Shown here: positions 2,427-20,359 of the stretch, one piece after another
How the letters are laid out: every line of letters starts with the position of its first letter
Numbering within the stretch: the first letter of the stretch is position 1
From: Planctomycetota bacterium
GTDB taxonomy: Bacteria; Planctomycetota; Phycisphaerae; UBA1845; UTPLA1
Assembly: GCA_016235815.1 (NCBI GenBank)
Contig: JACRIM010000058.1
Coordinates: 136,041-160,040, forward strand
Direction: 5' to 3'
Length of the DNA stretch: 24,000 nucleotides
Program-made: the position numbers and the translations under genes
Notes under the pieces: generated by a model
Seen by the model: the letters and a program-made list of their open reading frames with translations, nothing else
What the model was told of the DNA's origin: nothing
Databases searched by the model: none

Positions 2427-2647
2427 GCTGACGTGGGATCGATGAATTCATAATTAATCGCAATCCCGCTGGACGGCGCGATGGAAGGTCTAAGTGCCTG
2501 TCAGGAAGTACTTTGTCAGGCGCTTCCACTTTCATTCCGCAGGCTGGGTAATGGCTGAACTACACAGGCGGGTGCTTTGTGTCGGTTGTCCAATTCGTTC
2601 CCGGCTAGAATTAGATGGGCGACTTGGAAACGGACAGGAGGCATTAC

Positions 2648-4477
2648 ATGTCACGACCTCGCATTGTCCTCTTGACGACGCTGCCATTTGTGTTCGCAAC
2701 GCTCGCGTCGGCGGAAGGCACGAAGTTTCCCGGCAACGAGAATGCCAGTACTGCTTCGATACTGACTGCGCTCGGGGTACCGCCGTCGATGATTCGCGGC
2801 ATGCCCCAATCGAATGGCACGACTCCCCTCAAGTCGCGCGACGTACCCAGATTTGGCGATCATGCGACACCCCGAGGAATCGCATTCCCCGAGTCGGAGT
2901 TGGTCCAGGGCGGGGCAGTCGCCAATGACGAATTTGGGTGGTCGGTCCATGCACGAGGAAACACATCCATTGTCAGCGCCCACCGTCACGCGGTGAACGG
3001 CCCACAATCCGGCGCGGCCTATGTCTATATTCGCGACAATAACCAATGGACCCAACAAGCCATGCTTTCCCCAACGGACGGGACGACACAAGACTGGTTT
3101 GGCTATTCTGTGGCGGTCGATGGTAACACCGCAATCGTTGGCGCTGTTTTCGCGGACATCGCCGGCAACTTGATGCACGGCGCGGTCTATATTTTCGTTC
3201 GAACCGGCCAGACTTGGACGCAGCAGGCCAAAATAATCCCCCCTGCAAACCGTCAGGGATCCCTCTATGGATGGTCTGTAGCGATCGAAGGAGATACGGC
3301 CGTGGTCGGCGCGCCCTTTTATCATGCGACCTACCAATACCAAGGGCGAGTGTTTGTTTACCAGCGTTTAAACAACGTCTGGTCGCTTGCTGCTGACCTA
3401 ACGGCTCCCGATGGTGAACAAACCGATTACCTGGGCACCTGTGTTGCGATTGACAATGGAACCCTCGTGGCCACGGCACCATTTGCAGTGAATCAAAGTG
3501 GCTCTGCGACCGGTGCTGCGTATGTCTACACGAAGCCTGCAGCCACATGGACTGAACAGGCAAGATTATCGCCAACTGAAAACGATGCGGGGGCCCAGAT
3601 GGGCCTCGCGGCCGCGCTCGATAGCGATACCGCCGTATTCGGCGCACCATACACAACCACGGCCACGGGTAGTTGCTATGTATTCCATCGGAGCAGCGGC
3701 ATATGGACTCAGAGTGCCCGATTGACCGCATCGGATGGCATTGAGGATGATCGATTCGGTCAAGGCGTTGACATGTCAGGGCCGTTGCTCGTTGTCGGCG
3801 CCAATGGCACCGGCACTTGGCAGGGCTCTGCTTATCTCTTTTCGAATTGCTCAGGGCCGTGGACCGAATTCGCACGCATCGATGCCTCCGAGAGCGAGCC
3901 CAGTGATTATTATGCAGAAGCAGTTACGACCAATGGGCACCAGGTGATCGCCAGCGCACACCGAAAGGCCGGCAGCGCTGGCGCAGGCCAGGGCCGTGTC
4001 TATTCATATGAAGTTCAAATGCTTCCGCACTCGGAGATGCTGGTCGGTCCTTCAATGACCGAACTATGCTCTGCAACCATCGTCTCACTGAATGTGCAGC
4101 CATCAGAAATCGGGATGGAGTATGCCGTGCAAGTCGATGGTACCGATGCCGGAGTTTCAGTTCCGGGAAACGGAGCGGACATTGTCGTCTCGGGACAAGT
4201 GACGTCGCCCATTGCCAAGAACGCGTCGTTGTCCGTTCGTGCCACCAATCCAATTTCCTCGTGCAGTGTTACGTTGCAATATGTTCAGACCGTATGGATT
4301 TGGCCGAATGGCGATGCAGGCCAGCCTGTCAGCGGAGCCGACATCCAGTCCTTCCTGGATTCGCTGTTGAACAACGCCACCCCCGGGGAAGTGTATTGTC
4401 ATTTCGACTTTACTGGCGACGGCGTAGTATCGAATGCGGACATCGATGCATTTGTCGCCTCCGCGCTGAATCAGTAA
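2648..4477 (+). CDS. secreted seven-blade FG-GAP (integrin-alpha-like) beta-propeller protein with C-terminal dockerin-like calcium-loop pair
   Basis: The ATG at 2648 is preceded by GGAGG (2637-2641) with a 6-nt spacer; the track start at 2615 is rejected. Signal peptide is MSRPRIVLLTTLPFVFATLASAEG. There are seven repeats of the type FG[WY]SV.[VI].G.TA[IV]VGAP ... G[AR][AV]Y[VI][FY] ... W[TS][QE]. The C-terminus is NGDAGQPVSGADIQSFLDSLL ... DFTGDGVVSNADIDAFVASAL. Confidence 0.8.
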   Translation: MSRPRIVLLTTLPFVFATLASAEGTKFPGNENASTASILTALGVPPSMIRGMPQSNGTTPLKSRDVPRFGDHATPRGIAFPESELVQGGAVANDEFGWSVHARGNTSIVSAHRHAVNGPQSGAAYVYIRDNNQWTQQAMLSPTDGTTQDWFGYSVAVDGNTAIVGAVFADIAGNLMHGAVYIFVRTGQTWTQQAKIIPPANRQGSLYGWSVAIEGDTAVVGAPFYHATYQYQGRVFVYQRLNNVWSLAADLTAPDGEQTDYLGTCVAIDNGTLVATAPFAVNQSGSATGAAYVYTKPAATWTEQARLSPTENDAGAQMGLAAALDSDTAVFGAPYTTTATGSCYVFHRSSGIWTQSARLTASDGIEDDRFGQGVDMSGPLLVVGANGTGTWQGSAYLFSNCSGPWTEFARIDASESEPSDYYAEAVTTNGHQVIASAHRKAGSAGAGQGRVYSYEVQMLPHSEMLVGPSMTELCSATIVSLNVQPSEIGMEYAVQVDGTDAGVSVPGNGADIVVSGQVTSPIAKNASLSVRATNPISSCSVTLQYVQTVWIWPNGDAGQPVSGADIQSFLDSLLNNATPGEVYCHFDFTGDGVVSNADIDAFVASALNQ

Positions 4478-8636: not shown

Positions 8637-10160
8637 TCAGAACGAAATATTGGCCCACGGGCTGGTCGACGTCGCGGCCGCGCCTATGGGGCCGATGTCG
8701 TTCGACACGTTGAGATTGTAGTTCGGACTATTGCCGAATGCGGTGTTGCGAATGATGACGTTTCGCAACGGCACGGAGGCCAAAATGCCTGTGTCATTGC
8801 CGCTCACGTGATTCCCATCAACGCGCGCCCCGCCACCCAAGCAACGTATCCCCGCGCCCGGCCCCCCGCCGGCAATGGTGCCATTATCAACGCATGTATT
8901 GTCGGCGACCGTACAGCGATCCCGGGCAGTGATCCCGTCAAACCGATTCTGCGACGAAGCGTTTCTTCGAACGACGCAATTGGAGACAACCGTAATGCCG
9001 CTCTGGCCGTTGTTGGTCGCACTGCAGTCTTCCACCGTGGACCCGTCCGCGGATGCGTCAACGAAGATGCCGTGCGAGGCATTGTTCTTCGCCGAGCAGC
9101 CGCGAATGGCGGATGGCGCGTCGACATATATGCCGGCATCCAGATTCCAATTCGCCGATGTGTTCGATACCAGCAGTCGATTGAAAAAGGTCGAAACTCC
9201 GCGAAATAAGTTTCCGTTGGCAGTGCAGTTTGTAATCGTTCCGCCGTTGCAATAGATGCCGATAAATCCGTTCACCGAAGCCTCGCAATTCGTCGCGGTA
9301 AAATCATCATACGCTTCAAAGCCCGAATTACCGTTGCCAACGCTGACACAATTTGCCACAGCGCACGCATTCACCATCGAAAAACCCGTGCCGTTGTTGC
9401 CGTCGGCCACGCATCCCGTTGCCAGACATCGATCCGCCGTCACGAAGCCGGGGGCCGATCCCTTCGGTTGCTGATTGCTCCGCGCCGCACAATCGGCAAG
9501 CACGCTTCCTTCACCAACGTTAAAACCCGTGTTCCAGTTGTACTCGGCCGAACATCGACTCACGACACTGGTCGCCCCAACCGAGAATCCGCCGCCTCCG
9601 CAATAAAGCGCCACGCAATCCCGCATCGTCGTCACATTTCCGGCAAGGACGCCGAGCGAGAAACAGTTCTCAAACACACAGTCGCTGATGTCATTGTTGA
9701 ACGCGAGGTACAACCCAACGCCGCAACGATAGGCCTGGATGTGGCTGATACGAACGTTGGTCGCGTTCGTCAGGTCGATCCCCGCGTAACCCCATTCTTC
9801 GAGATTACCATTCGTAATCGCGATGTTGCGCCAGAACTGACCCTTGCCGGGCGATGTGGCGTAAATGGCCGCATTCGGATTGCCGTTGGCGCCAATGATC
9901 GCAAAGCCCGCCAGATCAACCGTCACATTGCTGGAGCTGATGATGATCCCGTGGGAAGATCCGTCGCCGGTCAGATTCCCCGTGAGCACATACGAGCCTG
10001 GCTGCGTGATCGTGTACGGCAGCGTACCGATGAACTGCTGGTTGATCTGAGTACGTCCGGTCGTCTGAATCGGCCCGGGCGGCGGACCGAGCGGGTCGGC
10101 TCCGGCCATCGTGGTAACGGTTGCAAGCACAAGTGCGCAAGTAGCGGCAAATCGAAACAT
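8637..10160 (-). CDS. secreted right-handed parallel beta-helix repeat protein, paralog E (507 aa)
   Basis: The ATG at 10160 is preceded by GGAGAGG 7 nt upstream; the track start at 10211 is a GTG extension. Signal peptide is MFRFAATCALVLATVTTMAGA. It has the N-terminal module GPIQTTGRTQINQQFIGTLPYTITQPGSYVLTGN ... SNVTVDLAGFAIIG. At least 14 coils of 20-27 aa with a recurring [VIL]xxC follow, and it ends ...IIRNTAFGNSPNY...SPWANISF. Confidence 0.8.
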   Translation of the reverse strand: MFRFAATCALVLATVTTMAGADPLGPPPGPIQTTGRTQINQQFIGTLPYTITQPGSYVLTGNLTGDGSSHGIIISSSNVTVDLAGFAIIGANGNPNAAIYATSPGKGQFWRNIAITNGNLEEWGYAGIDLTNATNVRISHIQAYRCGVGLYLAFNNDISDCVFENCFSLGVLAGNVTTMRDCVALYCGGGGFSVGATSVVSRCSAEYNWNTGFNVGEGSVLADCAARSNQQPKGSAPGFVTADRCLATGCVADGNNGTGFSMVNACAVANCVSVGNGNSGFEAYDDFTATNCEASVNGFIGIYCNGGTITNCTANGNLFRGVSTFFNRLLVSNTSANWNLDAGIYVDAPSAIRGCSAKNNASHGIFVDASADGSTVEDCSATNNGQSGITVVSNCVVRRNASSQNRFDGITARDRCTVADNTCVDNGTIAGGGPGAGIRCLGGGARVDGNHVSGNDTGILASVPLRNVIIRNTAFGNSPNYNLNVSNDIGPIGAAATSTSPWANISF

Positions 10161-10228
10161 GAAAGTACCTCTCCAAATTGAAAGTGTCGCAAGGGAGACG
10201 CGACAATTCACGCGTAAACGGTTCTAAC

Positions 10229-10945
10229 TCAGGGTGCGGTCAACAGGCAATTCACAAACGGAGTCACGTCGTCAAGATCAAGGAACCCGTCGGGCGGCGG
10301 CTCCAGATCGCCCGAGCAGACTGCGTTCCACGTCGCGCCACCCAACAGCGCATCGACAAAAGGCTGCACATCGCGGCCATTCAGTGACCCATCCATGTTC
10401 ATGTCACACGACACCGGCGTCGACGCAGCATCAAGCGAGACATATTTCGTCGGCGTCGTGTCCGACAAGTTGATCCACCCGATATTCTCTCCCCACACAT
10501 AACCGGTCAGCCTCGCTCGTGGCTCGCCCGGCGGTGTCGCACAAAGAATGCGCGCGGGCTGTGCAGGAGTCGCCATCGCGCCGCCGCCGAAGTTGATCCA
10601 CCCGATGTTCTCTCCCCACGCATACCCGGACAGCGAGCCGTCGGAGCCCACATTCACGCCGAAGTCCGTCCCATCGGCGTTCGCATACCGCCCATCAATT
10701 CCGCCCGGCGTACCGTCACCCACGTTGATCCATCCGACGTTCTCTCCCCAAATGAACCCGGAAAGCACCTTGGACCCCACATGCACTCCCTGCCCCGGCG
10801 TCGCCTCGCCGCGCCAGTTGGTCCAACCGACATTCTCACCCCAGGCGTGCTTGTTCGGCACGGTGGTGTCGATGTTCGACTGGGCGACCAATACGCTCGC
10901 AATTGACAAGAGAACCAAGGCTAACGTCAATGTTATCTGTTTCAT
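10229..10945 (-). CDS. secreted WGEN[IV]GW[IT]N-repeat protein with C-terminal dockerin-like calcium-loop pair (238 aa)
   Basis: The ATG at 10945 gives signal peptide MKQITLTLALVLLSIASVLVAQS; the track start at 11071 would overlap the upstream gene. There are four copies of [HGG][AFY][AIV]WGEN[VI]GW[TI]N[WVFL]. The C-terminus is DMNMDGSLNGRDVQPFVDALL ... DGFLDLDDVTPFVNCLL. Confidence 0.75.
   Translation of the reverse strand: MKQITLTLALVLLSIASVLVAQSNIDTTVPNKHAWGENVGWTNWRGEATPGQGVHVGSKVLSGFIWGENVGWINVGDGTPGGIDGRYANADGTDFGVNVGSDGSLSGYAWGENIGWINFGGGAMATPAQPARILCATPPGEPRARLTGYVWGENIGWINLSDTTPTKYVSLDAASTPVSCDMNMDGSLNGRDVQPFVDALLGGATWNAVCSGDLEPPPDGFLDLDDVTPFVNCLLTAP
10469..10849 (-). repeat. four in-frame copies of a 13-aa WGENIGWIN-type motif (Trp at residues 35, 66, 110, 151)
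   Basis: The repeat is also visible at DNA level. For example, gatccacccgatattctctccccacacataaccggtcag (about 10472-10510) and gatccacccgatgttctctccccacgcatacccggacag (about 10593-10632) differ at only a few positions. Confidence 0.8.
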
Positions 10946-10979
10946 TATTCGTACCCTTCGTAAAGAGCTTACTGACGCT

Positions 10980-12110
10980 TTAATACGAGAAGTTCGCCCA
11001 CGGGTCGGTCGTCCCCAGCCCTGCGCCGCCGCTGCTGCCGTTGATGGCTCCACTGTTGGGCGCTGCGACAATCACGCCAACCTTGTTGTTGGCCACAATG
11101 CTGTAGTTCACGGTGTTTCCTGTCGCGGAGTTGCGGATGATCAGATTGTTGGCCCCATCCACGTCGATCCCACGATCCTGGGTGGTGACGTTGTTGTCTT
11201 CGATGCGATTGAAAGAGTTGTTGACGTGAATGCCGGCGCCGTCGCCGTTCAGGCCGTTGGCAATGCAGTTGTTACCGCGAACCGTACATTGGTTACTGAC
11301 TTCGATGCCATCGCCTCGATTGCCTGAGGCATTGCATTCGATTACCAAGGCGCTCGCGCTGGCGTTAATCCCGTCGTTTTCCGTCGCCGATCCACTTCCG
11401 TTGCCGCCCACGTAGCAGTGCGTAATGGTCGACCCTCCGGCGAAAATGCCGTGGCCACCGCCGGAGCCTGAACCGTTGCTATAGGCGACGCATTCGCTGA
11501 CGGTGCTGGACGAAAAGACGAGGAAACCATGGCCGACCGTCGCTCCTTCGCCATTGTAGACACTGACGCAGTGCGAAAGAGTGCAGAAATAACCCGTAAA
11601 GATGCCGGTGGTGGCGTTGAACGATGCGATGCAATCCGACACGGTGCAGTGATTTCCAAACCTCAAACCGTTTGCACCATTGTTCACGGCACACAGGTTT
11701 GAATACTGGCTGTTTGTGGCGTCGCCGGCGTCCACTCCGCTTCCGCCCCAGTCTCGAATCGTCCCGTTGGTGATTCGAAGATTGTTGATATTGTCCGGCA
11801 CGCTGATCCCACTTCCGGAGCCGGCCTCGCCGATCAGCGTGAAGCCGTTCAAATCCAGCGTGACGTTGCTGGCGGTGATGACGATTCCATCCGGCCCGCC
11901 GGGAAACGACGCGGCGTTGATCTCACCCATGAGGACGTAGGAGCCTGATTGCGAAATGGTGTAGGGCAGCGCGGCGATTTTCTGCGGGTGAATTGCCACG
12001 CGATTAGTCGGTTGGATCGGGCCGGTTGGAGGATTGAGATCGCCGCCGAACGCGGCAAGCGGGCCGAGAGTGATGGTGCATAGCGCACAAGTGACAAGTT
12101 TTCTGCCCAT
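10980..12110 (-). CDS. secreted right-handed parallel beta-helix repeat protein, paralog C (376 aa)
   Basis: The first ATG is at 12110 (MGRKLVTCALCTITLGPLAAFG); the track start at 12125 is a TTG overlapping the upstream stop. It has GDLNPPTGPIQPTNR...LPYTISQSGSYVLMG...SNVTLDLNGFTLIG, then beta-helix coils, and ends ...LIIRNSATGNTVNY...TDPWANFSY. Confidence 0.8.
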   Translation of the reverse strand: MGRKLVTCALCTITLGPLAAFGGDLNPPTGPIQPTNRVAIHPQKIAALPYTISQSGSYVLMGEINAASFPGGPDGIVITASNVTLDLNGFTLIGEAGSGSGISVPDNINNLRITNGTIRDWGGSGVDAGDATNSQYSNLCAVNNGANGLRFGNHCTVSDCIASFNATTGIFTGYFCTLSHCVSVYNGEGATVGHGFLVFSSSTVSECVAYSNGSGSGGGHGIFAGGSTITHCYVGGNGSGSATENDGINASASALVIECNASGNRGDGIEVSNQCTVRGNNCIANGLNGDGAGIHVNNSFNRIEDNNVTTQDRGIDVDGANNLIIRNSATGNTVNYSIVANNKVGVIVAAPNSGAINGSSGGAGLGTTDPWANFSY

Positions 12111-12121
12111 TGTAATTGCTC

Positions 12122-13348
12122 TCAATACGAAAAGTTCGCGTTAGGATCCGTTGAACCAAGCGTGGAAGGCGAAGGGCCGTTGCCGGAGATGACCGCGGCA
12201 TTGGTGCCCGCGACGACGATCGGGCCGACCGAGTTGCCGATGGCGATCTCCCAGTTGCTTGTGTTCCCCGAGCAGGTGTTCTTGATGATGATGTTGCCGG
12301 TAAAGTCCACGTCGATGCCTCGGTCGGCGCCCGTACAGTTGTTGCCCTCGATTCGGTTGTCGCTACCGGTTGCGTGGATGCCTGCTCCATTGCCGGCCCC
12401 CAAGCCGTTGCCCGCGGCGGTGTTGCCGCGGAGAATGCAAAATGAAGTACAAAGAATGCCGTCGAGCGTATTGGCTTGGGCGGCGCAATCGGCGACCGTG
12501 GAGCTGTTTCTGGCGTAAATCCCGACAGCGGTGTTCTCGATCGCCGAACAGTTCAAGACCATGCTGCCCTCGCCGGTGTTGATGCCGCTTCCGTTCCATG
12601 ACACGGAGCAGTTCGTGATCGTGCAGCCCCTGCCGGCGTGGATGCCTTCGATGTTGTTATCGAACGCCGAGCAGTTGGTGACCGTATTCCCGGTGTTGTG
12701 GACGATGATGCCTGTCTCGCCGTTTCGGTAGGCGCAGCAGTTGGTAATCGTGCAGCCGAATTCAGCGCTGATGCCATCGACTGCGTTGTCATAGGCCACG
12801 CAGTTCGTGACCGTGCTTCCATTGCCGACGCTGATACCGGACAAGTCGAGGCTGCCGCTGACGTGCAGGTCGGCCACCCGGCAATTGGCCGCGAGAAGGG
12901 ATCCAAGATCGACACCTTCGTCGCCCCAATTACGGACCGAGCCGTTGACGACCGCGATACTATGCAGGTTGGCCACCGTCGCGCTCACGCCATCCAGTGA
13001 GCCGACGACGCCCAAAAGATCGAACCCGTTGAGGTCGAGTGTGACGCCGCTGGCAACGATCTCGATCCCGTGCTTGCCCACTACACCGCTGATGTTCCCC
13101 GTGAGGTAGTAGGATCCGGGTTGGGTAATCTTAAAGAGCGAGTTCGCGTCGCCCGGCGTGTTGATCGCGTTGACGGCGGTCCGCGGTTCTATCTCGGTCA
13201 GCGTCTTGTGCGTCGGCGCGACGGGCCCGGCCGGCGGATTCAAGTCACCGGCATTTGCTACCCAGGCGCCGGCCATGATGCTCACCAGGCAGAGGGGAAT
13301 CACGACCCTACTAGACTGTATTGCACTCCAATTCATGACACTCCTCAT
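12122..13348 (-). CDS. secreted right-handed parallel beta-helix repeat protein, paralog B (about 408 aa)
   Basis: The ATG at 13348 lies 4 nt after the upstream stop. An alternative ATG at 13336 sits 4 nt after an AGGAG. The track ATG at 13396 would overlap paralog A by 44 nt. Signal peptide is ...VVIPLCLVSIMAGAWVANA, followed by GDLNPPAGPVAPTHKTLTEIEPRT...PGSYYLTGN...VTLDLNGFDLLG. Coils are very regular at 20-22 aa (TVTNC, TITNC, TVTNC, TITNC, MVLNC, TVADC). It ends ...IIIKNTCSGNTSNW...TDPNANFSY. Confidence 0.8.
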   Translation of the reverse strand: MRSVMNWSAIQSSRVVIPLCLVSIMAGAWVANAGDLNPPAGPVAPTHKTLTEIEPRTAVNAINTPGDANSLFKITQPGSYYLTGNISGVVGKHGIEIVASGVTLDLNGFDLLGVVGSLDGVSATVANLHSIAVVNGSVRNWGDEGVDLGSLLAANCRVADLHVSGSLDLSGISVGNGSTVTNCVAYDNAVDGISAEFGCTITNCCAYRNGETGIIVHNTGNTVTNCSAFDNNIEGIHAGRGCTITNCSVSWNGSGINTGEGSMVLNCSAIENTAVGIYARNSSTVADCAAQANTLDGILCTSFCILRGNTAAGNGLGAGNGAGIHATGSDNRIEGNNCTGADRGIDVDFTGNIIIKNTCSGNTSNWEIAIGNSVGPIVVAGTNAAVISGNGPSPSTLGSTDPNANFSY

Positions 13349-13352
13349 CACG

Positions 13353-14429
13353 TCAGAAGCTAAAATTCGCCCACGGATTCGTGGCCGAAAAATCATCCCC
13401 GGGCGTCAACACTTCCGCCTTGCTGTTGCCCGCGGCCACATCGTAATCCGTCGTATTGCCGCCCGCTGAATTTCGAATGATCAGGTTTCCGCCCGCGTCC
13501 ACGTCGATGCCGCGCAAGTTGTCCGTCACATGATTCGAATCGATTCGATTGTCATCGGAGGTGGCGTGAATTCCTGCCCCACTCGTTTGGCCGTCGCACA
13601 GATTATTCATCACGCGCGCGTCAACGCTCACCAGAATCCCGTCACCAAGATTCGCGGAGGATGTGCACTGTTGAATTGTGCACGCCGCGCCGCCGACAAT
13701 TCCATTGCCGGAATTCGAGCGAGATGTGCATGACGTGACCGTGCTCCCCTGACCGACAGAGATTCCATCCGTTGTATTGAAGATCACCATGCAATTCGTC
13801 AACGTATTTCCGGTGTTGGCGCTGATGCCGAAGGTCATGTTGTTGGCGGCAAAACAATTGGCCATTACGCCGCCGACGCCGAGCGTGAACCCCGCGCCCG
13901 TGTTGGCCGTGGAAACACAATCCGTTATCACGGCGCCGGCGCCGGCTGCAACGCCGTTTGTCCCGCAGGTGGACACGCGCAGCAGACTGAGCACCTTTGT
14001 CGTGGCCGAAATCGTATCGACGCCCGCACCGCCCCAGCCGCGAATCGCCCCGTTACGAATGCTGATATTCACCGCGTTCACCGCGGTGATGCGAATGCCC
14101 TGCAGCGATCCGGTTACCCCTTGCAACTCGAACCCCATCAAATCCACGGACACATTCGATGCGGCTATTTCGATGCCCGCCTTCGAAGCCGCCCCGGAGA
14201 CGTTTCCCGTCAGGTAGAAAGACCCGGGGGCAGAAATCCGATACAGGGAATCGCCGTCGCCCGGCGTGTTGACAAGATTGATCGCCGTTCGCGGCTCAAC
14301 GTCGGTAAGCGGTTTCAACGTCGGAGCAACCGGTCCGACCGGGGGATTCAAATCTCCCGCGCTGATCGGTTGAGTTCCCACGACACCCATCGTTAGAAGC
14401 ACCGCCATAACCCTCTGAAATCTCTTCAC
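13353..14429 (-). CDS. secreted right-handed parallel beta-helix repeat protein, paralog A (358 aa)
   Basis: The GTG start at 14429 is preceded by GGAGG with a 5-nt spacer and gives a proper signal peptide, MKRFQRVMAVLLTMGVVGTQPISA. It has GDLNPPVGPVAPTLKPLTDVEPRT...PGSFYLTGN...VSVDLMGFELQG, then 21-aa coils (ITDC, MANC, LTNC, VTSC, IQQC), and ends ...LIIRNSAGGNTTDY...TNPWANFSF. Confidence 0.8.
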   Translation of the reverse strand: MKRFQRVMAVLLTMGVVGTQPISAGDLNPPVGPVAPTLKPLTDVEPRTAINLVNTPGDGDSLYRISAPGSFYLTGNVSGAASKAGIEIAASNVSVDLMGFELQGVTGSLQGIRITAVNAVNISIRNGAIRGWGGAGVDTISATTKVLSLLRVSTCGTNGVAAGAGAVITDCVSTANTGAGFTLGVGGVMANCFAANNMTFGISANTGNTLTNCMVIFNTTDGISVGQGSTVTSCTSRSNSGNGIVGGAACTIQQCTSSANLGDGILVSVDARVMNNLCDGQTSGAGIHATSDDNRIDSNHVTDNLRGIDVDAGGNLIIRNSAGGNTTDYDVAAGNSKAEVLTPGDDFSATNPWANFSF

Positions 14430-14494
14430 GATCCCCTCCAGACTCAGTGATCTTCCCCGCCCTGAAATGAAAAACGGATTATCCCGCAGAGTGG

Positions 14495-14524
14495 GTTATA
14501 CCCGATTCACACACGCGATTTCAA
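14495..14524 (-). promoter_or_regulatory. candidate sigma70-type promoter for the beta-helix cluster
   Basis: The reverse strand reads TTGAAA (14524-14519), an 18-nt spacer, then TATAAC (14500-14495). This sits about 65 nt upstream of the GTG at 14429. It is a pattern match only. Confidence 0.35.
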
Positions 14525-14842
14525 TCCGATTGGCCCAATTCTACTGTCTTTTCAGGTAATTTGCCCGCCTAAAGGCCCGCTCCGGAATTTCCCGATATCA
14601 ACATTGGGAAACGCCAGCAAGCGGCCATCTCCCAATCTTGGAGTGCGCGCTTCGCCGCTTCACGCGTCAACCCGAAGAACCGCTTGCGACCTCGCGACGT
14701 ATGCGAGTAGGATTACAAGGGTTCGGCGGCAATGGCCATGTTTGGGGGACGCCGACTCGGTAACGATTGAAGCGACCGGTTTCGTCAGGAAGCCGACTCG
14801 CACACAACCACCGAACAAGACTCACACGGAGGTGAGGACGAC

Positions 14843-16318
14843 ATGTCAGGATTGATTTCCTCGAGCCGAGTCGGATTCGAACAGGATTCGCTTTTAGCTG
14901 CACGACGATCTGCCACTGTGTTTCACCAGCATTGGACCAGCCCCTACGCCGCACGACGCGTCCATCTCATCGGCGTCGGCGGTTCAGGCATGAGCGGCCT
15001 CGCCGGCGTCCTGCTTCGCTGCGGTGCGATTGTCAGCGGATCCGATCTGTCGCCATTTAAGACACAGGCCCGCCTGCAGGAGTTGGGCGCCACCATCACC
15101 ATGGGCCACGCCCCGATCAATATCCCCTCCGACTGCGATCTCGTCGTCTATTCCGCGGCCGTGAAGGATGACAACCCCGAACTCGCCGAGGTCAAACGCC
15201 GCGGCATCCGGCGAATGAAATATGCCGAAATGCTCGGCCAGGTCATGCGCCTCCGAACCGGCATCGCCATCGCCGGCACCCACGGCAAAAGCACCACCAC
15301 CGCCCTGACCGCCTACATCTTGAAAGAAGCAAAAGCCGACCCGACCTTTGTCGTTGGTGCGTTGGTCAAGCAACTCGAAAGCAGCTCCGCCGTCGGCGAC
15401 GGCCCGCACTTCGTGGTCGAGGCCTGCGAATACGACCGCTCGTTCCTGAACCTGCTGCCCAAATTCGCCGCGATCCTCAATATCGAAGAGGATCACCTCG
15501 ACTGCTTCGAAAGCCTCGATGCCATCACCGAAGCGTTTCGCGCCTTCGTCGCCCTCGTGCCGGAAGATGGCGTCGTCATTGCCAACGGCGACGACCCTCA
15601 AGTCGCCAAGGCCCTTCGCGGCGCACGCGGCACTGTGCAGACCTTTGGTATCGCCGAGAATGCCTTTTGGCGAGCGACGAACATCCGCCATCATCAGGGC
15701 TGTTATTCGTTCAACATCCTTCGAAACGGCGAAGAGTTCCTGTATGCCTCCATGAACGCACTCCCCGGCCGTCACCAGGTCTACAATGCCCTCGCCGCCA
15801 CCGCCCTGACCGCCCACGCCGGCATTGACCGGGAGTCCATCTCCGCTGCCCTGCAAACCTTTTCAGGAGCCGACCGCCGACTCTCCCAACGTGGCGAAGT
15901 CCGGGGAATCCTGCTCCTGGACGACTACGGCCATCACCCCACCGAGGTCCGCGTGACCATTCGGGCCGTCCGCGAGCGCTATCCCGACCGCCGATTGTGG
16001 GTTGTGTTCCAGCCCCACCAGCACTCGCGGACGCGATTCCTGATGGCCGATTTTGCCCGCAGCTTCGGCGAATGCGATCACCTGCTGGTACCCGATATCT
16101 ATTTCGTGCGTGACAGCGCCGCCGACCGCGCCGCCGTCAGCAGCCAACAACTCGTCGAACGGGTCCGGTCACACGGCGTCGATGCCCAGTACCTTCCCAA
16201 TCATGATGAAATCGTCGAACATATCGTGCAGCACGCTCACCCCGGCGACATCATCCTCACCATGGGGGCCGGGGACGTCTGGAAAATCGCCGATGCCCTT
16301 GTTCGACGACTGGCCTGA
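14843..16318 (+). CDS. murC: UDP-N-acetylmuramate--L-alanine ligase MurC
   Basis: Diagnostic strings: HLIGVGGSGMSGLAGVLLRCGAIVSGSDL, GTHGKSTTT, LDDYGHHPTEV, VFQPHQHSRT. GGAGGTGAGG lies just upstream of the ATG at 14843. Confidence 0.93.
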   Translation: MSGLISSSRVGFEQDSLLAARRSATVFHQHWTSPYAARRVHLIGVGGSGMSGLAGVLLRCGAIVSGSDLSPFKTQARLQELGATITMGHAPINIPSDCDLVVYSAAVKDDNPELAEVKRRGIRRMKYAEMLGQVMRLRTGIAIAGTHGKSTTTALTAYILKEAKADPTFVVGALVKQLESSSAVGDGPHFVVEACEYDRSFLNLLPKFAAILNIEEDHLDCFESLDAITEAFRAFVALVPEDGVVIANGDDPQVAKALRGARGTVQTFGIAENAFWRATNIRHHQGCYSFNILRNGEEFLYASMNALPGRHQVYNALAATALTAHAGIDRESISAALQTFSGADRRLSQRGEVRGILLLDDYGHHPTEVRVTIRAVRERYPDRRLWVVFQPHQHSRTRFLMADFARSFGECDHLLVPDIYFVRDSAADRAAVSSQQLVERVRSHGVDAQYLPNHDEIVEHIVQHAHPGDIILTMGAGDVWKIADALVRRLA

Positions 16319-17174
16319 AATCGTCCGCACCAACGTGCCGCTTGCGCCGCTTACGTGGTTCAAGCTCGGCGGCACCGCAGAGTATTTGATCGAACCCCGC
16401 ACCGAGGATGAACTCGTCGGCGTCGTTCGCCGCTGCCGCGAGACAAACACGCCGCTCCGTTTTCTTGGCCTCGGCGCGAATGTCATCGTGAACGACAACG
16501 GCGTGAAAGGCGCGGTCGTTCGTCTCACCGCCGACCACTTCACCCAAATGATCGTTGACGGCGACCGTGTCACCGCCGGCGCTGGCGCCGACCTGACCAA
16601 GCTCGTCCTCGCCACCGTCAAGAAAGGGCTTGCCGGACTTGAGAACATCGCCGGCATTCCCGGAACCGTCGGCGGCGGCATCGCCATGAATTGCGGAGGC
16701 CGCTACGGCGAAATCGGAACCGCCGTCCGCAGCGTCCGTGTCATCGGCCGCGACGGCGAAATCTACGAACGCGACCACGACGACATGGACTTCGGCTACC
16801 GGCGCTCCGCCCTTGGCGACGATTGCGTCCTGAGCGTGTCCTTCCAACTTCACAAAGACGACCCAGCGACGCTCGACCACCGATTCCGCGAGATCTGGAT
16901 GTACAAGCAAAACACCCAGCCGCCCCTCGGTTGCCAAAGCGTCGGGTGCATCTTCCGAAACCCCGACGGCCGCTCCGCCGGCCAGCTCATCGACCAGGCC
17001 GGCCTGAAGGGCAGGCGAATCGGCACGGCCTACGTGTCCGACCGCCATGCGAATTTCGTCCTTGCCGACATTGGCGGCCGGGCAGGCGACGTACTCGAAT
17101 TAATTGACTCCATCATTGACACCGTAAACGAACGGTTTGGAATTAGACTCGAACCCGAAGTGAAAATCTGGTAA
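16293..17174 (+). CDS. murB: UDP-N-acetylenolpyruvoylglucosamine reductase MurB
   Basis: The true start is taken as the ATG at 16293 (MPLFDDWPEIVRTNVPLAPLTWFKLGG), which overlaps the murC 3' end by 26 nt. The track start at 16053 is a frame-shadow extension inside murC. Motifs: LGLGANVIV, GIPGTVGGGIAMNCGGRYGE, FGYRRS, GCIFRNP, GLKG..IG.A.VS..HANF. Confidence 0.9.
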   Translation: MPLFDDWPEIVRTNVPLAPLTWFKLGGTAEYLIEPRTEDELVGVVRRCRETNTPLRFLGLGANVIVNDNGVKGAVVRLTADHFTQMIVDGDRVTAGAGADLTKLVLATVKKGLAGLENIAGIPGTVGGGIAMNCGGRYGEIGTAVRSVRVIGRDGEIYERDHDDMDFGYRRSALGDDCVLSVSFQLHKDDPATLDHRFREIWMYKQNTQPPLGCQSVGCIFRNPDGRSAGQLIDQAGLKGRRIGTAYVSDRHANFVLADIGGRAGDVLELIDSIIDTVNERFGIRLEPEVKIW

Positions 17175-17236
17175 AACACCCGCGTCGCCCCCGTCGGCGG
17201 CGTGTACGCATCATCCTGTTTGCACGGAGGCAAACC

Positions 17237-18208
17237 GTGGCTGCGACAAAAACGCGATTCGACCTTACGCGACTCACGCGTATTCCCACTCAACAGAAGC
17301 TCGCCATCACCGTCCTCTCCGGCGGTCCCAGCGGCGAGCGCGACGTCAGTCTCGACAGCGGCAAGTGCGTTGCCAGCGCCCTGGAGTCGCTCGGCCACAA
17401 GGTCTACGTCGAGGACATCAATCCCGAAAACCTCGCGGGCCTCGCCCGGCACGTCGATTGCGTGTTCGTAGCCCTTCACGGCACTTTCGGCGAAGACGGC
17501 CAAGTGCAGGAAATCCTCGAACGCCGCAACCTCGCCTACACCGGCAGCGGCCCCGATGCCTGCCGCCTCGCCATGAACAAGGTCGCCGCCAAAAAGCGGT
17601 TTGAGGAACTTGGCATTCCTACTCCGCGATGGGACGTCGCCACGACCAAAACCTATCGCGAGGCCGTCGCCGCGTGGTCGATGCCGGTCGTCGTGAAGCC
17701 AATCAGCGAAGGCAGCAGCATCCACTGCTACATCGTTCGCGACGTCGCCCAGTTTCGCCCCGCGGTGGAGAAAGTGATCGACGCATACGGCGAAGCCCTG
17801 ATCGAGGAATACATCCCCGGCCGCGAACTCACCGTCGGCATTCTCGGCGACGCACCCCTTCCCCCCCTCGAAATCCGCACCAAACGCGACTACTACGACT
17901 ACGCCGCAAAATATGTCGATGAAGATACGCAGTACGACTTCGACATCACCCTGCCCGAAGACCTGCTCGAGCGAATCATGGAAATGAGCCTCGCCGCACA
18001 CAAGGGTCTCGGTTGCCGGGATTTCTCGCGCCTCGACTGGAGGGTGGACGACTCGTGCCTGAAACCCTATCTCCTCGAAGCAAACGTCATCCCCGGCCTG
18101 ACCTCGCACTCCCTCGTCCCCAAGGCCGCACAACGGGCCGGCCTCCCCATGGCCGAAATGTGCCAGGCAATCATCGACATGGCCATCAAGCGGAAATTCT
18201 CGCGTTAA
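17237..18208 (+). CDS. ddl: D-alanine--D-alanine ligase
   Basis: The GTG start is preceded by GGAGG (17226-17230) with a 6-nt spacer. Motifs: VLSGGPSGERDVSL, ALHGTFGEDGQVQEILE, MNKVAAKKRFEELGIPTP, VVKPISEGSS, EANVIPGLTSHSLVP. Confidence 0.92.
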   Translation: MAATKTRFDLTRLTRIPTQQKLAITVLSGGPSGERDVSLDSGKCVASALESLGHKVYVEDINPENLAGLARHVDCVFVALHGTFGEDGQVQEILERRNLAYTGSGPDACRLAMNKVAAKKRFEELGIPTPRWDVATTKTYREAVAAWSMPVVVKPISEGSSIHCYIVRDVAQFRPAVEKVIDAYGEALIEEYIPGRELTVGILGDAPLPPLEIRTKRDYYDYAAKYVDEDTQYDFDITLPEDLLERIMEMSLAAHKGLGCRDFSRLDWRVDDSCLKPYLLEANVIPGLTSHSLVPKAAQRAGLPMAEMCQAIIDMAIKRKFSR

Positions 18209-18307
18209 AGGATTACAGAGCCGCGCCCGTTAGGCGGGTTCGGAATCATCGAATCGCAATGGGTATTCAACAGTCATTGCAGTAACGGAAGGCTGACCTA
18301 ATTCATC

Positions 18308-19279
18308 GTGGCTCGCAAACAACCATCCGCGATCTTCCGCTTCAAAGACGCCGTGTCGATCTGGCTCGGCGATCGCGTTGCCTCCATCAGCGACTCGACT
18401 CGCCGCGTCCTCTGGCAGGGCGTAGGCGTCACGCTCGTCGCCACCCTGCTTTTCTTCTTCGGCAGCCGCGCCATGCAACGCATGCAGGATTTCGTCCACG
18501 GCCAGGATCAATACGATCGACCGCTGGTGCTCGAATGGGAGAACCTGCCCGACTGGCTCATGCTCCCGGACAACGGCCACATTCTCGACGATCTGGTCGC
18601 CCGCGTGGACCTGCAGCCAACCGATCGAATGCTCGATCCCGAATTGTCTCATCGCATCGGCAGCGCCCTGACGGCTTCAGACGTCGGCTGGGTCAAGGCG
18701 GTGGATCGAATCCAGATTCGTGCCGAAGGCGTGATTGGCATCCGCTGCCAGTTTCGAAAGCCCAACGCATGGGTCAAGCAAGGCTCCCATTGTTATCTCG
18801 TTGATGACGAGTGCTATCGCCTGCCCGGCCGATACGCCGCCGACGACTGCAAAGGCACATCACTGATGACCATCATCGGCGTGCGTGGCAAGGCCCCCGG
18901 CGTCGGCCAGCGTTGGCCCGCATCCGAACTGGCCGACGGCATTCGCACCGTCGCATTGCTTTCGGCAAAACCGTTCGGCCGGGAAATCTCCGCCGTCAAT
19001 GTCTCGAATCACGATGGCCGCGTGGACAAAAACCGACCGCACATCGAACTAATTACCGACGCCAAGGGTTCGCGAATCTGGTGGGGCCGCCCGCCGGAGC
19101 GCGAACAGGGAATCGAAATCTCCGCGACACAAAAAGTGACGCTGCTCGAAACCCTCTACAAACAGTGGGGCCGCCTCTCGGTGAACCGCCCCTATATCGA
19201 CATCCGCACCTGGCCCGACCGCGTGGCCATGCCCATGATGATCCCCACCTCCAGCCAGACTCGCGTCATCCGCGGCTGA
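18308..19279 (+). CDS. FtsQ/DivIB-like bitopic membrane protein (tentative)
   Basis: It sits immediately after ddl. It has a single TM segment (VGVTLVATLLFFFGS) followed by an extracytoplasmic domain. The pattern VKAVDRIQIRAEGVIGIRCQFRKPNAWV...YLVDDECYRLP ... IWWGRPPE...ATQKVTLLETLY resembles the POTRA plus FtsQ layout. The start is GTG with a weak SD. Confidence 0.5.
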   Translation: MARKQPSAIFRFKDAVSIWLGDRVASISDSTRRVLWQGVGVTLVATLLFFFGSRAMQRMQDFVHGQDQYDRPLVLEWENLPDWLMLPDNGHILDDLVARVDLQPTDRMLDPELSHRIGSALTASDVGWVKAVDRIQIRAEGVIGIRCQFRKPNAWVKQGSHCYLVDDECYRLPGRYAADDCKGTSLMTIIGVRGKAPGVGQRWPASELADGIRTVALLSAKPFGREISAVNVSNHDGRVDKNRPHIELITDAKGSRIWWGRPPEREQGIEISATQKVTLLETLYKQWGRLSVNRPYIDIRTWPDRVAMPMMIPTSSQTRVIRG

Positions 19280-19289
19280 TTCCGCTTTT

Positions 19290-19312
19290 CCCTCCCCTAG
19301 CAAAGGGGAGGG
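19290..19312 (+). terminator. GC-rich hairpin 11 nt after the ftsQ-like stop
   Basis: CCCTCCCCT (19290-19298), loop agcaa, AGGGGAGGG (19304-19312): a perfect 9-bp stem. A T-run lies 5' of the stem (gctttt), but there is no U-tail 3' on either strand. It sits between convergent genes. Confidence 0.5.
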
Positions 19313-19378
19313 TCACGGTGAGGTCATCGAAAGTGAACTGCCGCCGCTTGACGAAGAAGACTCAAGATCAACAAGTGA

Positions 19379-20359
19379 TCACGCCCGCATCAGCGCCCCC
19401 GCCGGATTCACACAATTCGTAACCTCGCCATCCTCCACAAACGCACGCACGATTCGCACCGTCTCTTCCGCGACGGCCGCCTGCGCCTGTTCCGTGGACG
19501 CCCCCACATGATGCGTGCCATAGACGTGCGGCGTCGTCAGAATCGGATCCTTGAATTCTCCTTGCGGCGCCTCGGGCTCCACTTCATACACATCCAGCGC
19601 CGCCCCCGCGACTCGACCTGCCTTCACGGCATCGGCCAACGCAGTTTCATCCACAACGCCGCCCCGGCTGCAATTGATGACAAACGCCCCCGACTTCATC
19701 CGGGCAAATTCATTCACGCCGATCATATGCCTCGTGTCTTTGCCGCCGGGTACATGCACCGTGATAAAGTCGGACTCCGCCAGCAGTTGTTCGAGTGAAA
19801 CCTTGTGCAGTCCGTATTTCTCATGCAGGTCATACCGTTCGGCCACATCGGTATAGACGATGTTCATCTCAAACGCCGCGGCCCGTTTCGCCACTTCGCA
19901 ACCAATCCGGCCCAGGCCGATGATGCCGAGCGTGCGACCTTTAAGCCCGCGGGCCTTGCTGTATTCCTTCTTGTTCCATACACGCCGGCGCAGATCGTCC
20001 GTCTCATCCACGATCCGCCGATCCAGTGCGATCATGAACCCAATCGTCAGTTCCGCAACCGCCACACTGTTCATCCCCGGGCAGTTGCAGACCTTGATGC
20101 CCAACTCCGTCGCGGCCGGCACGTCGATCGTGTCGGTCCCGGCCCCGGCGCGAAGAACCATCTCCAGATGATTCCCCGCCGCCATGACCTCCCGCGGCAC
20201 CTTGGTCGACCGCACAATCAGAATGTTGCACGCCGTCTCCACGACAGCGTCGATCAAATGCTGCCCCTGCGTTCCCGGCGCATAAGTGACCTCGCAGCCG
20301 AACTGCTGCATTTGATCGATACCGGCCTGTTCAAATTTGTCCGCAACGAAGATTTTCAT
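19379..20359 (-). CDS. D-isomer-specific 2-hydroxyacid dehydrogenase (SerA-like, no ACT domain; 326 aa)
   Basis: The start is taken as the ATG at 20359 (MKIFVADKFE), with GAGGTG 5 nt upstream; the track start at 20494 adds an implausible Arg-rich extension. Motifs: GIIGLGRIGCEVAKRA (NAD fold), NCSRGGVVDE, GTHHVGASTEQAQ. Confidence 0.85.
   Translation of the reverse strand: MKIFVADKFEQAGIDQMQQFGCEVTYAPGTQGQHLIDAVVETACNILIVRSTKVPREVMAAGNHLEMVLRAGAGTDTIDVPAATELGIKVCNCPGMNSVAVAELTIGFMIALDRRIVDETDDLRRRVWNKKEYSKARGLKGRTLGIIGLGRIGCEVAKRAAAFEMNIVYTDVAERYDLHEKYGLHKVSLEQLLAESDFITVHVPGGKDTRHMIGVNEFARMKSGAFVINCSRGGVVDETALADAVKAGRVAGAALDVYEVEPEAPQGEFKDPILTTPHVYGTHHVGASTEQAQAAVAEETVRIVRAFVEDGEVTNCVNPAGALMRA

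Follow-up and report, generated by a model that had tools for sequence, protein, structure and literature searches.

We analyzed a stretch of 24,000 nucleotides (nt) from a Planctomycetota bacterium (contig JACRIM010000058.1, positions 136,041 to 160,040; hereafter the window) and found that five adjacent genes within it are one instance of a recurrent cassette in Phycisphaerae and related bacteria of the PVC (Planctomycetota-Verrucomicrobiota-Chlamydiota) group. Four of the genes, designated A, B, C, and E, encode paralogous secreted proteins with a right-handed parallel beta-helix, and the fifth, D, lies between C and E and encodes a small repeat protein with a dockerin-like tail. Our tentative reading, held with somewhat less than even confidence, is that the cassette encodes extracellular, glycan-targeting beta-helix paralogs that share D as an accessory or anchor protein.

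Phycisphaerae are abundant and poorly understood bacteria of soils, freshwater, groundwater, and marine particles. The cassette is among their most amplified sets of secreted proteins, with several arrays in some genomes. The beta-helix fold is already known, and expansions of beta-helix paralogs are unsurprising in themselves. In Pfam, NCBIfam, and literature searches, we could not find a description of the family-specific termini, of the tandem-array habit across the Phycisphaerae, or of the recurrent pairing with a protein that combines an unmodeled domain of four GW repeats (GW x4) with a dockerin-like tail; the literature held nothing specific on the beta-helix family, the GC-type dockerin, or Phycisphaerae beta-helix arrays. 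If the proteins depolymerize or bind specific glycans and share an anchor, they would represent a new way to organize extracellular polymer attack or adhesion and a source of new carbohydrate-active specificities. Because the cultured Phycisphaerae bacterium RAS2 carries a minimal pair of a beta-helix gene and a D homolog (RAS2_12370), the hypotheses discussed below are directly testable.

Linkage of D with beta-helix arrays

For a survey seeded with D, one genome per species was scanned with an alignment of D. The scan yielded 574 confirmed sites; 80 loci were retrieved and annotated with hidden Markov models over six-frame open reading frames (ORFs). At least one full-length beta-helix gene was found directly upstream of D on the same strand in 64 of the 80 loci. 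The upstream arrays held one to eight genes, and several extended past the locus edge. No beta-helix gene lay directly downstream of D in 78 of the 79 loci scored, and D was terminal except in one or two cases. Several metagenome-assembled genomes (MAGs) hold two or three such array-D loci. The arrangements ranged from the pair in RAS2, a beta-helix gene of 441 amino acids (aa) and a D of 235 aa, to a 2-Mb contig with six beta-helix genes followed by D, and in one case a 707-aa long-form beta-helix gene preceded a diverged D-like protein with YGANIGW and TSP3 repeats. We looked for a fixed beta-helix subtype adjoining D and saw no such pattern.

A second survey was seeded with the beta-helix family and covered 80 metagenome loci, 58 of which carried at least two tandem copies. 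Among 33 informative arrays, those with sufficient sequence downstream for a call, 11 ended in D, one had D elsewhere, and 21 were followed by unrelated genes. Because about two thirds of the informative arrays end without D, D is not an obligate co-encoded partner. The link is asymmetric: D is nearly always found with beta-helix genes, and arrays often have no adjacent D. The first-pass annotation of the window had suggested that D sits inside the array as a possible partner of the beta-helix proteins. The linkage in the D loci bears out the partnership, but D is typically terminal and not embedded. That annotation also named, as an outcome that would refute it, homologs that are solitary and never linked to the repeat protein, and the counts from the two seeds clearly contradict such an outcome.

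Other genes recurred near the arrays. Ser/Thr kinase genes were present in 24 of the 80 D loci (L006, L007, L010, L044, L046, L058, L063, L067, L072, L076, and others), some directly beside the array, and none is present in the window. These kinases are ~700-1300 aa long and often divergently oriented, sometimes with a small ORF between; in the protein of L007, the kinase domain is N-terminal and the long C-terminal region is repeat-like. As kinases neighbor the array in a minority of loci only, we rejected them as a conserved regulator. In five loci (L013, positions 10796-19521, L002, L015, L047, and L068), members of one protein cluster of ~500-1650 aa are encoded downstream of D. L013 has four tandem 700-aa copies, and the copy that was scanned has a GC-type dockerin at its C-terminus (NF041540, E 6e-16) and otherwise only a weak choice-of-anchor Q match in Pfam; the L002 member is rich in TSP_3 repeats. 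The proteins of the L013 type may be a second uncharacterized tandem secreted family.

The beta-helix paralogs and their fold

Pairwise identity across the four paralogs is 36-45%, with B, C, and E being 45%, 39%, and 36% identical to A, respectively. Averaged over pairs, the N-terminal module is 42% identical, the middle, with its large indels, 24%, and the distal block 45%, and the last eight residues are nearly identical in all four proteins ((D/S/N)P(W/N)AN(F/I)S(F/Y)). These values bear out the first-pass description of four diverged, secreted beta-helix paralogs whose ends are conserved and whose middle varies, a layout that would suit interchangeable receptor- or substrate-binding proteins. 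The paralogs share no long DNA repeats; the repeats found between them are short in-frame motifs. The duplicates are therefore old, and on the same grounds we ruled out recent gene conversion and a recombination-cassette mechanism.

The Pfam family Beta_helix (PF13229, cut-off 25.9 bits) was matched significantly by B (E 1.9e-13, 51 bits), C (E 1.9e-10, 41 bits), and E (E 5e-23, 82 bits), and B and E also passed TIGR03804. The only Pfam match of A was a sub-threshold one to NosD, yet A is as close to B as given above, and the A1 profile spans it over its full length. We modeled B with AlphaFold2 from 88 sequences. The model has a predicted local distance difference test (pLDDT) score of 87 overall and 95-99 over residues ~55-370, and it is a right-handed beta-helix, a three-sheet solenoid of about 13 coils with a period of ~21 residues; the protein chain ends ~40 residues past the last helix coil. 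Together, PF13229, TIGR03804, and the model place the family among right-handed parallel beta-helix proteins. An Asn ladder and an internal Cys ladder are present in the coils. One sheet of B also carries a T-x-T ladder, and an ice-binding function was considered and set aside, as this ladder is not kept in A, C, and E.

In a Foldseek search of the PDB, the top matches of B were the A-modules of the mannuronan C5-epimerases AlgE4 (2pyg, E 6e-9) and AlgE6, at 15% identity and template modeling (TM) scores of 0.47-0.52. Tailspikes, GH87, alginate epimerase/lyase, AlgG, RbmB, K1 capsule lyase, and the adhesin PfbA followed, with TM scores of 0.47-0.56 over the polysaccharide-active matches. The nearest solved folds thus nearly all belong to proteins that act on polysaccharides. 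The resemblance is a generic CASH-type similarity. Profiles of four and of 88 family sequences retrieved no relative from the PDB sequences. A scan of the whole of Pfam-A at E<=1 gave nothing beyond Beta_helix, NosD, and noise, with no pectate-lyase or GH28 match, and the proteins do not belong to the pectate/pectin lyase, GH28, or DUF1565-type families as these are represented in Pfam.

Several specific assignments were tried and rejected. The catalytic motif of the epimerases, DPH(D/E), lies on the mid-helix groove. Although mannuronan C5-epimerases and AlgG-type proteins are the best fold match, none of A, B, C, and E contains the DPH tripeptide, and just 11 of 236 family members do. NosD was dismissed, with 9.1 bits against a cut-off of 300 for TIGR04247, PF05048 aligning to generic repeats only, and no nos genes in the flanks. 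An autotransporter or chlamydial Pmp identity was not supported, as the B model has no C-terminal barrel and there is no such Pfam match, and PADLOC gave no match to a defense system for any of the five proteins. The view taken in the first-pass annotation, that the paralogs belong to no characterized family beyond the generic fold, has therefore held up: sequence searches of Pfam, NCBIfam, PHROGs, PADLOC, and the PDB returned generic matches or none.

The fold matches, mostly to polysaccharide-active enzymes, are what one would expect if the paralogs were an ordinary expansion of free secreted lyases, hydrolases, or epimerases, with D as an independent carbohydrate-binding or surface protein that shares the operon. 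The frequency of D-less arrays (21 of 33 informative loci) also fits such free enzymes, as do the occurrence of the GW module in many unrelated extracellular architectures and the generic character of the dockerin-like tail, which is also found on an FG-GAP protein of the window (2615-4477). However, no known catalytic motif was found (DPH is missing from 225 of the 236 members as well as from all four window paralogs), Pfam gave no pectate-lyase or GH28 match at E<=1, and free enzymes would leave unexplained both the 64 of 80 D genes that directly follow a beta-helix gene and the strictly conserved, unstructured termini described below. On balance, we consider this explanation somewhat unlikely.

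Tailspikes among the fold matches raise the question of a prophage or tailocin origin, in which the paralogs would be tailspike-like receptor-binding proteins, and a conserved N-terminus with a variable body is the tailspike layout. One solitary family member of 402 aa without D (L088, on the 749-kb contig k141_277558) adjoins an FG-GAP_2 protein and has Mu-like portal and terminase genes next to it, on the opposite strand; this is the sole phage-like neighborhood observed. Nevertheless, a phage tailspike or tail fiber identity is effectively refuted. The beta-helix proteins match nothing in PHROGs, and a search of 2.9 million viral contigs gave no relative. A Sec signal peptide is present in every member, housekeeping genes flank the array in conserved synteny, and no structural phage genes were found in the 80 + 80 surveyed loci.

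Family distribution and conserved termini

A profile built from the four paralogs retrieved at least 1057 proteins, and the named ones come almost all from Planctomycetota/Phycisphaerae MAGs. Their names are only generic ('right-handed parallel beta-helix repeat-containing protein', 'parallel beta-helix repeat protein', or 'hypothetical protein'). Family members are 340-750 aa long; the long forms of ~620-750 aa start with AQGPLTPPGAPAPTMKTLxQVEPRTPI and end with PWANFSF. In many arrays of the metagenome loci (L091, L094, L096, L102, L104, L109, and others), the distance from the beta-helix stop to the next ORF start is a constant 33-34 nt, which suggests that a conserved intergenic unit may have been duplicated together with the gene.

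Conservation was assessed in an alignment of 236 full-length members, with residues numbered as in B. The mature N-terminus is the most conserved part (G34, L36, P38, P39, and G41 at 93-100%), and conservation is high in the first coils as well (EPR, NTPGD, I.QPGSYYLTGN, VTLDL.GF). At the C-terminal end, A404 is kept in 94% and N405 in 100% of members, and the last residue is aromatic. In the B model, the N-terminal peptide has a pLDDT of ~60-66, and across the last 30 residues the score drops from ~58 to below 50. The termini are conserved yet unfolded in the monomer model, and they are therefore as expected of interaction motifs. Of 361 family ORFs, many of them truncated at contig ends, 277 finish with the C-terminal motif AN[FYIL]x[YFH]. 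Neither this motif nor the N-terminal one was found in any of the 4091 non-family ORFs of the same loci, and we rejected the possibility that they are a general sorting tag of neighboring genes.

Conserved ends mediate assembly in flagellins and pilins. The beta-helix proteins could by analogy be subunits of an extracellular fiber, with terminal peptides that drive head-to-tail or trimeric assembly and with D as the tip, base, or assembly factor. Termini that are conserved and disordered in the monomer model are in keeping with this, as are the single D per array and the alternating hydrophobic residues of the C-terminus (A-x-F-x-Y), whose sequence would suit strand addition to a partner beta-sheet. 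A fiber is nonetheless very improbable, given that no usher, sortase, or pilus ATPase is linked to the arrays and that subunit lengths span the whole range from 340 to 750 aa.

Protein D and its GW module

D has no Pfam domain. Its repeats are four WGENxGW units (DNA repeat family D2). The top 120 homologs, which include RAS2_12370, are 47-91% identical to D, nearly all over 89-100% of its length, and D is much better conserved than the beta-helix proteins. In an alignment of 20 members, the W/E/N/G/W positions of the repeats and four cysteines (C135, C180, C210, and C233) are invariant, and the tail has two calcium-loop/helix segments. The four invariant cysteines are consistent with an extracytoplasmic location.

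By sequence, the first segment of the tail (DMNMDGSLNGRD) is canonical and the second is degenerate. A 20-sequence profile matched PDB dockerins weakly (E 3e-3), and D scored 18.3 bits against the NCBIfam model dockerin_GC (NF041540, cut-off 29). PF00404 (Dockerin_1) was not matched by D itself but was matched by five of the 20 homologs, with a best E of 1.4e-3. We also considered whether the repeats of D belong to the ChW repeat (PF07538) and rejected membership: the best match was 14.8 bits against a cut-off of 22 (E 0.014), covering profile positions 3-18 of 35, and weak ChW matches of 7-15 bits were seen in 11 of the 20 homologs.

An exhaustive profile search for the GW x4 module, counted in clusters at 50% identity, found 348 clusters at E<=1e-30 and 2504 at E<=1e-10. 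Elsewhere, the module occurs in two to four tandem copies within proteins of 412-1595 aa (for example P0241, P0242, P0246, P0250, P0333, and P0341), where it is combined with TSP3_bac calcium-binding repeats as spacers or with Calx-beta, proprotein-convertase P-domain, or peptidase C13 domains. Forms of the TSP3 type usually carry a conserved C-terminal segment, FRI...TL.F.SSP.R.Y.I....L..W.... Pfam left the module unmatched in all D-like proteins scanned, and the module stands beside calcium-binding motifs in every architecture examined. Because it has no Pfam model and recurs in extracellular proteins, GW x4 is an undescribed extracellular domain.

The FG-GAP protein of the window is a secreted protein of 620 aa (FG-GAP_2, Pfam E 4e-77) that also has a tail with a dockerin-like double calcium loop (...SGADIQSFLDSLL...DFTGDGVVSNADIDAFVASALNQ). 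Because this second protein has one too, the dockerin-like tail seems to be a general anchoring module of the organism.

A more specific role for D is that of an adaptor, whose GW hairpins would capture the terminal peptides of swappable beta-helix heads while the dockerin-like tail docks to a surface scaffold. The cassette would then be a previously unrecognized modular system for display on the surface of PVC bacteria and, by analogy, a cellular counterpart of the phage arrangement of an adaptor with multiple tailspikes, and lineages could swap, amplify, or lose glycan specificities through gene turnover. We regard the adaptor role as decidedly doubtful.

Proposed function of the cassette

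In the reading that we tentatively prefer, with D as a shared accessory or anchor of glycan-targeting proteins, the beta-helix proteins would be exported through Sec, recognize glycans outside the cell, and probably cleave or modify them. Targets would differ from paralog to paralog through variation in coil number and in outward-facing residues. On the last coils, a polar cluster (H325, R332, E334, D342, R343, and D346) would form a common binding or catalytic site, and the N-terminal Pro-rich peptide (G-x-L-x-P-P-x-G-P) and the C-terminal A-N-F-x-Y tail would serve as common handles. The dockerin-like tail of D may tether or organize the beta-helix proteins at the surface, or its Trp-rich repeats may bind the same substrate. 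We infer glycan targeting solely from the fold neighbors of the model; catalysis by the beta-helix proteins and contact between them and D are likewise inferred.

Several results weigh against this reading. Conservation of the proposed distal site is moderate: R332 is kept in 88% and E334 in 86% of the aligned members, and H325, D342, R343, and D346 are each below 80%. In E, most of the polar cluster is gone, with RGIDVD replaced by TGILAS in the alignment. No sequence link to a characterized enzyme family or a solved structure emerged from Pfam, NCBIfam, or the PDB. The arrays without D, about two thirds of those that were informative, include ones of five to eight genes, and no fusion of a beta-helix to D was present among 16 long D-like representatives inspected. 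The model of D is poor (pLDDT 58), and Foldseek returned nothing below E 0.8 and no fold match for it. Finally, transporter, sulfatase, regulator, and cohesin genes are all missing near the array in the window flanks.

Divergence and copy number

Synteny between the closest relative (L081, a contig of 306,922 bp) and the window spans murB to BioY. The relative has two beta-helix genes upstream of D, compared with three in the window, and a 507-aa gene follows D in both. The difference in copy number upstream of D arises because C has no ortholog in the relative. Identities between the two (Table 1) show that the cassette diverges faster than its neighbors, with the exception of the metallophosphoesterase, and that copies are gained or lost. 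In L081-L083, E is likewise the gene that follows D, and several related genomes (P0013, P0019, P0030, and P0039) have orthologs of 507 aa; E represents a lineage-specific, length-conserved ortholog group.

This pattern of divergence is relevant to a further possibility, that the paralogs are non-enzymatic variable adhesins or coat proteins (compare Pmp and PfbA) diversified under selection by phages, grazers, or different substrata, with D as their anchor. Divergence above that of most flanking genes, a copy number that differs between close relatives, and a variable middle between conserved ends would all be expected of adhesins. PfbA is among the fold matches, and the family lacks an invariant catalytic cluster, with E retaining the architecture without the polar residues. 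On the other hand, the proteins consist only of a signal peptide, the helix, and a short tail, with no membrane or cell-wall anchor or autotransporter barrel of their own, many arrays have no D, and there are neither phase-variation repeats nor recombination tracts. We consider adhesins or coat proteins unlikely.

Comparison with known systems

The paralogs share their fold, including the ~21-residue coil period and the Asn and Cys ladders, and their secretion with the CASH or PbH1 polysaccharide-acting proteins (AlgE4/AlgE6, AlgG, tailspike depolymerases, GH87, RbmB, and K1 lyase). They differ from these in being only ~15% identical, in giving no profile match to any solved chain, and in lacking DPH(D/E), and their candidate polar site would lie on the last two or three coils instead of mid-helix. 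The N-terminal Pro-rich peptide and the C-terminal AN(F/Y)x(Y/F) tail are the family's own and are not known to us from the CASH or PbH1 enzyme families.

The likeness to dockerin-cohesin cellulosomes lies in the dockerin-like double calcium-loop/helix end of D, which falls below every curated threshold. In cellulosomes the enzymes bear the dockerins, whereas here the beta-helix proteins have none and only the small partner D does. No cohesin was found in the window flanks. GC-type dockerin proteins do adjoin homologous arrays, after D in some loci (L013). A cohesin/dockerin 'planctosome' has been hypothesized for freshwater Phycisphaerae, and it concerns peptidases (PMC6461901). P-domain, TSP3, and LTD proteins, which belong to this model, are found together with the GW module or with the arrays.

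ChW is a GW-type surface-anchoring repeat of Firmicutes and endolysins whose ligand is unknown (PMC5817068). ChW and D both have short N-x-G-W repeats in secreted proteins but differ in phylum and envelope type, and we regard this as a resemblance and not as membership.

Within the PVC group, the chlamydial Pmp proteins are also multi-paralog, partly tandem, fast-diverging surface proteins with a predicted beta-helix. They are autotransporters with a C-terminal beta-barrel and GGA(I/L/V)/FxxN repeats. The window proteins are 358-507 aa long and have no barrel and no Pmp or autotransporter match in Pfam.

Organization of the locus

An ORF check confirmed all five genes on the minus strand at 8637-14429 and reproduced the coordinates of the first-pass annotation together with its spacing of 4, 11, 34, and 68 nt between successive genes from A to E, as obtained with the starts given in Table 1. 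Signal peptides had been claimed for all five products, and a heuristic check agreed: each product starts with positive charge at its N-terminus and continues into a hydrophobic stretch (10-aa hydropathy peaking at 2.1-2.9). In A, B, C, and E, the conserved G-D/P-L-x-P-P-x-G-P begins straight after an A-x-A-like site.

Table 1. Features of the window and their identity to the closest relative (L081)
Feature	Position	Strand	Description	Identity to relative
A	13353-14429	-	Beta-helix paralog, 358 aa; signal peptide, GDLNPPVGPVAPT motif, type-I N-module (EPR...NTPGD), C-terminal NPWANFSF	65%
B	12122-13348	-	Beta-helix paralog, 408 aa from MRSV; canonical member, modeled	58%; 408 aa here vs 361 aa there
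C	10980-12110	-	Beta-helix paralog, 376 aa; short N-module without EPR/NTPGD insert	No ortholog; best match 37-38%
D	10229-10945	-	Repeat protein, 238 aa; signal peptide, AQSNID, four WGENxGW(I)N beta-hairpin repeats, four invariant Cys, dockerin-like double Ca-loop tail	74%
E	8637-10160	-	Beta-helix paralog, 507 aa; longer helix, short N-module; downstream of D	69%
Divergent A-murC spacer	14430-14842		Presumed to carry array promoter	
FG-GAP protein	2615-4477	+	Secreted, dockerin-like tail	
murC				95%
murB				81%
cobW-like				83%
Phosphonate-binding				81%
BioY				82%
Metallophosphoesterase				64%

The ORF of B reaches 13396 at most, and its start options give proteins of 393, 404, or 408 aa. 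In an independent assembly of the same organism, A to E are called at 358, 404, 376, 238, and 507 aa, and only the start codon of B is uncertain, because that assembly agrees on the other four lengths. The NCBI start calls differ in giving A 342 aa, with loss of the signal peptide, and B 393 aa. The start of A at 358 aa is backed by homologs and by a GGAGG ribosome-binding site ahead of its GTG start codon, which is kept in L081.

On one side of the array, the flanking housekeeping genes are NadA, DUF2617, the FG-GAP protein, BioY, the phosphonate-binding protein, the cobW-like protein, and the metallophosphoesterase; on the opposite side they are murC and murB. The gene spacing is compatible with a single transcription unit driven from the murC spacer, which we consider plausible. 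We considered and rejected an operon-splitting terminator between D and E, as the relative does not conserve the hairpin at 10185-10205 and its stability is not unusual (z -1.3). Promoter and terminator scans of the window were at chance level, and a structured RNA was discounted for want of an Rfam match in the window. Within the 413-nt spacer, a block of 39 nt at 14676-14714 (AATCCTACTCGCATACGTCGCGAGGTCGCAAGCGGTTCT, minus strand) is conserved with L081, and the rest has diverged. The block occurs once in the window, and neither a sigma-70-like site nor an Rfam match was found in it; it could be a promoter or operator for either the array or murC.

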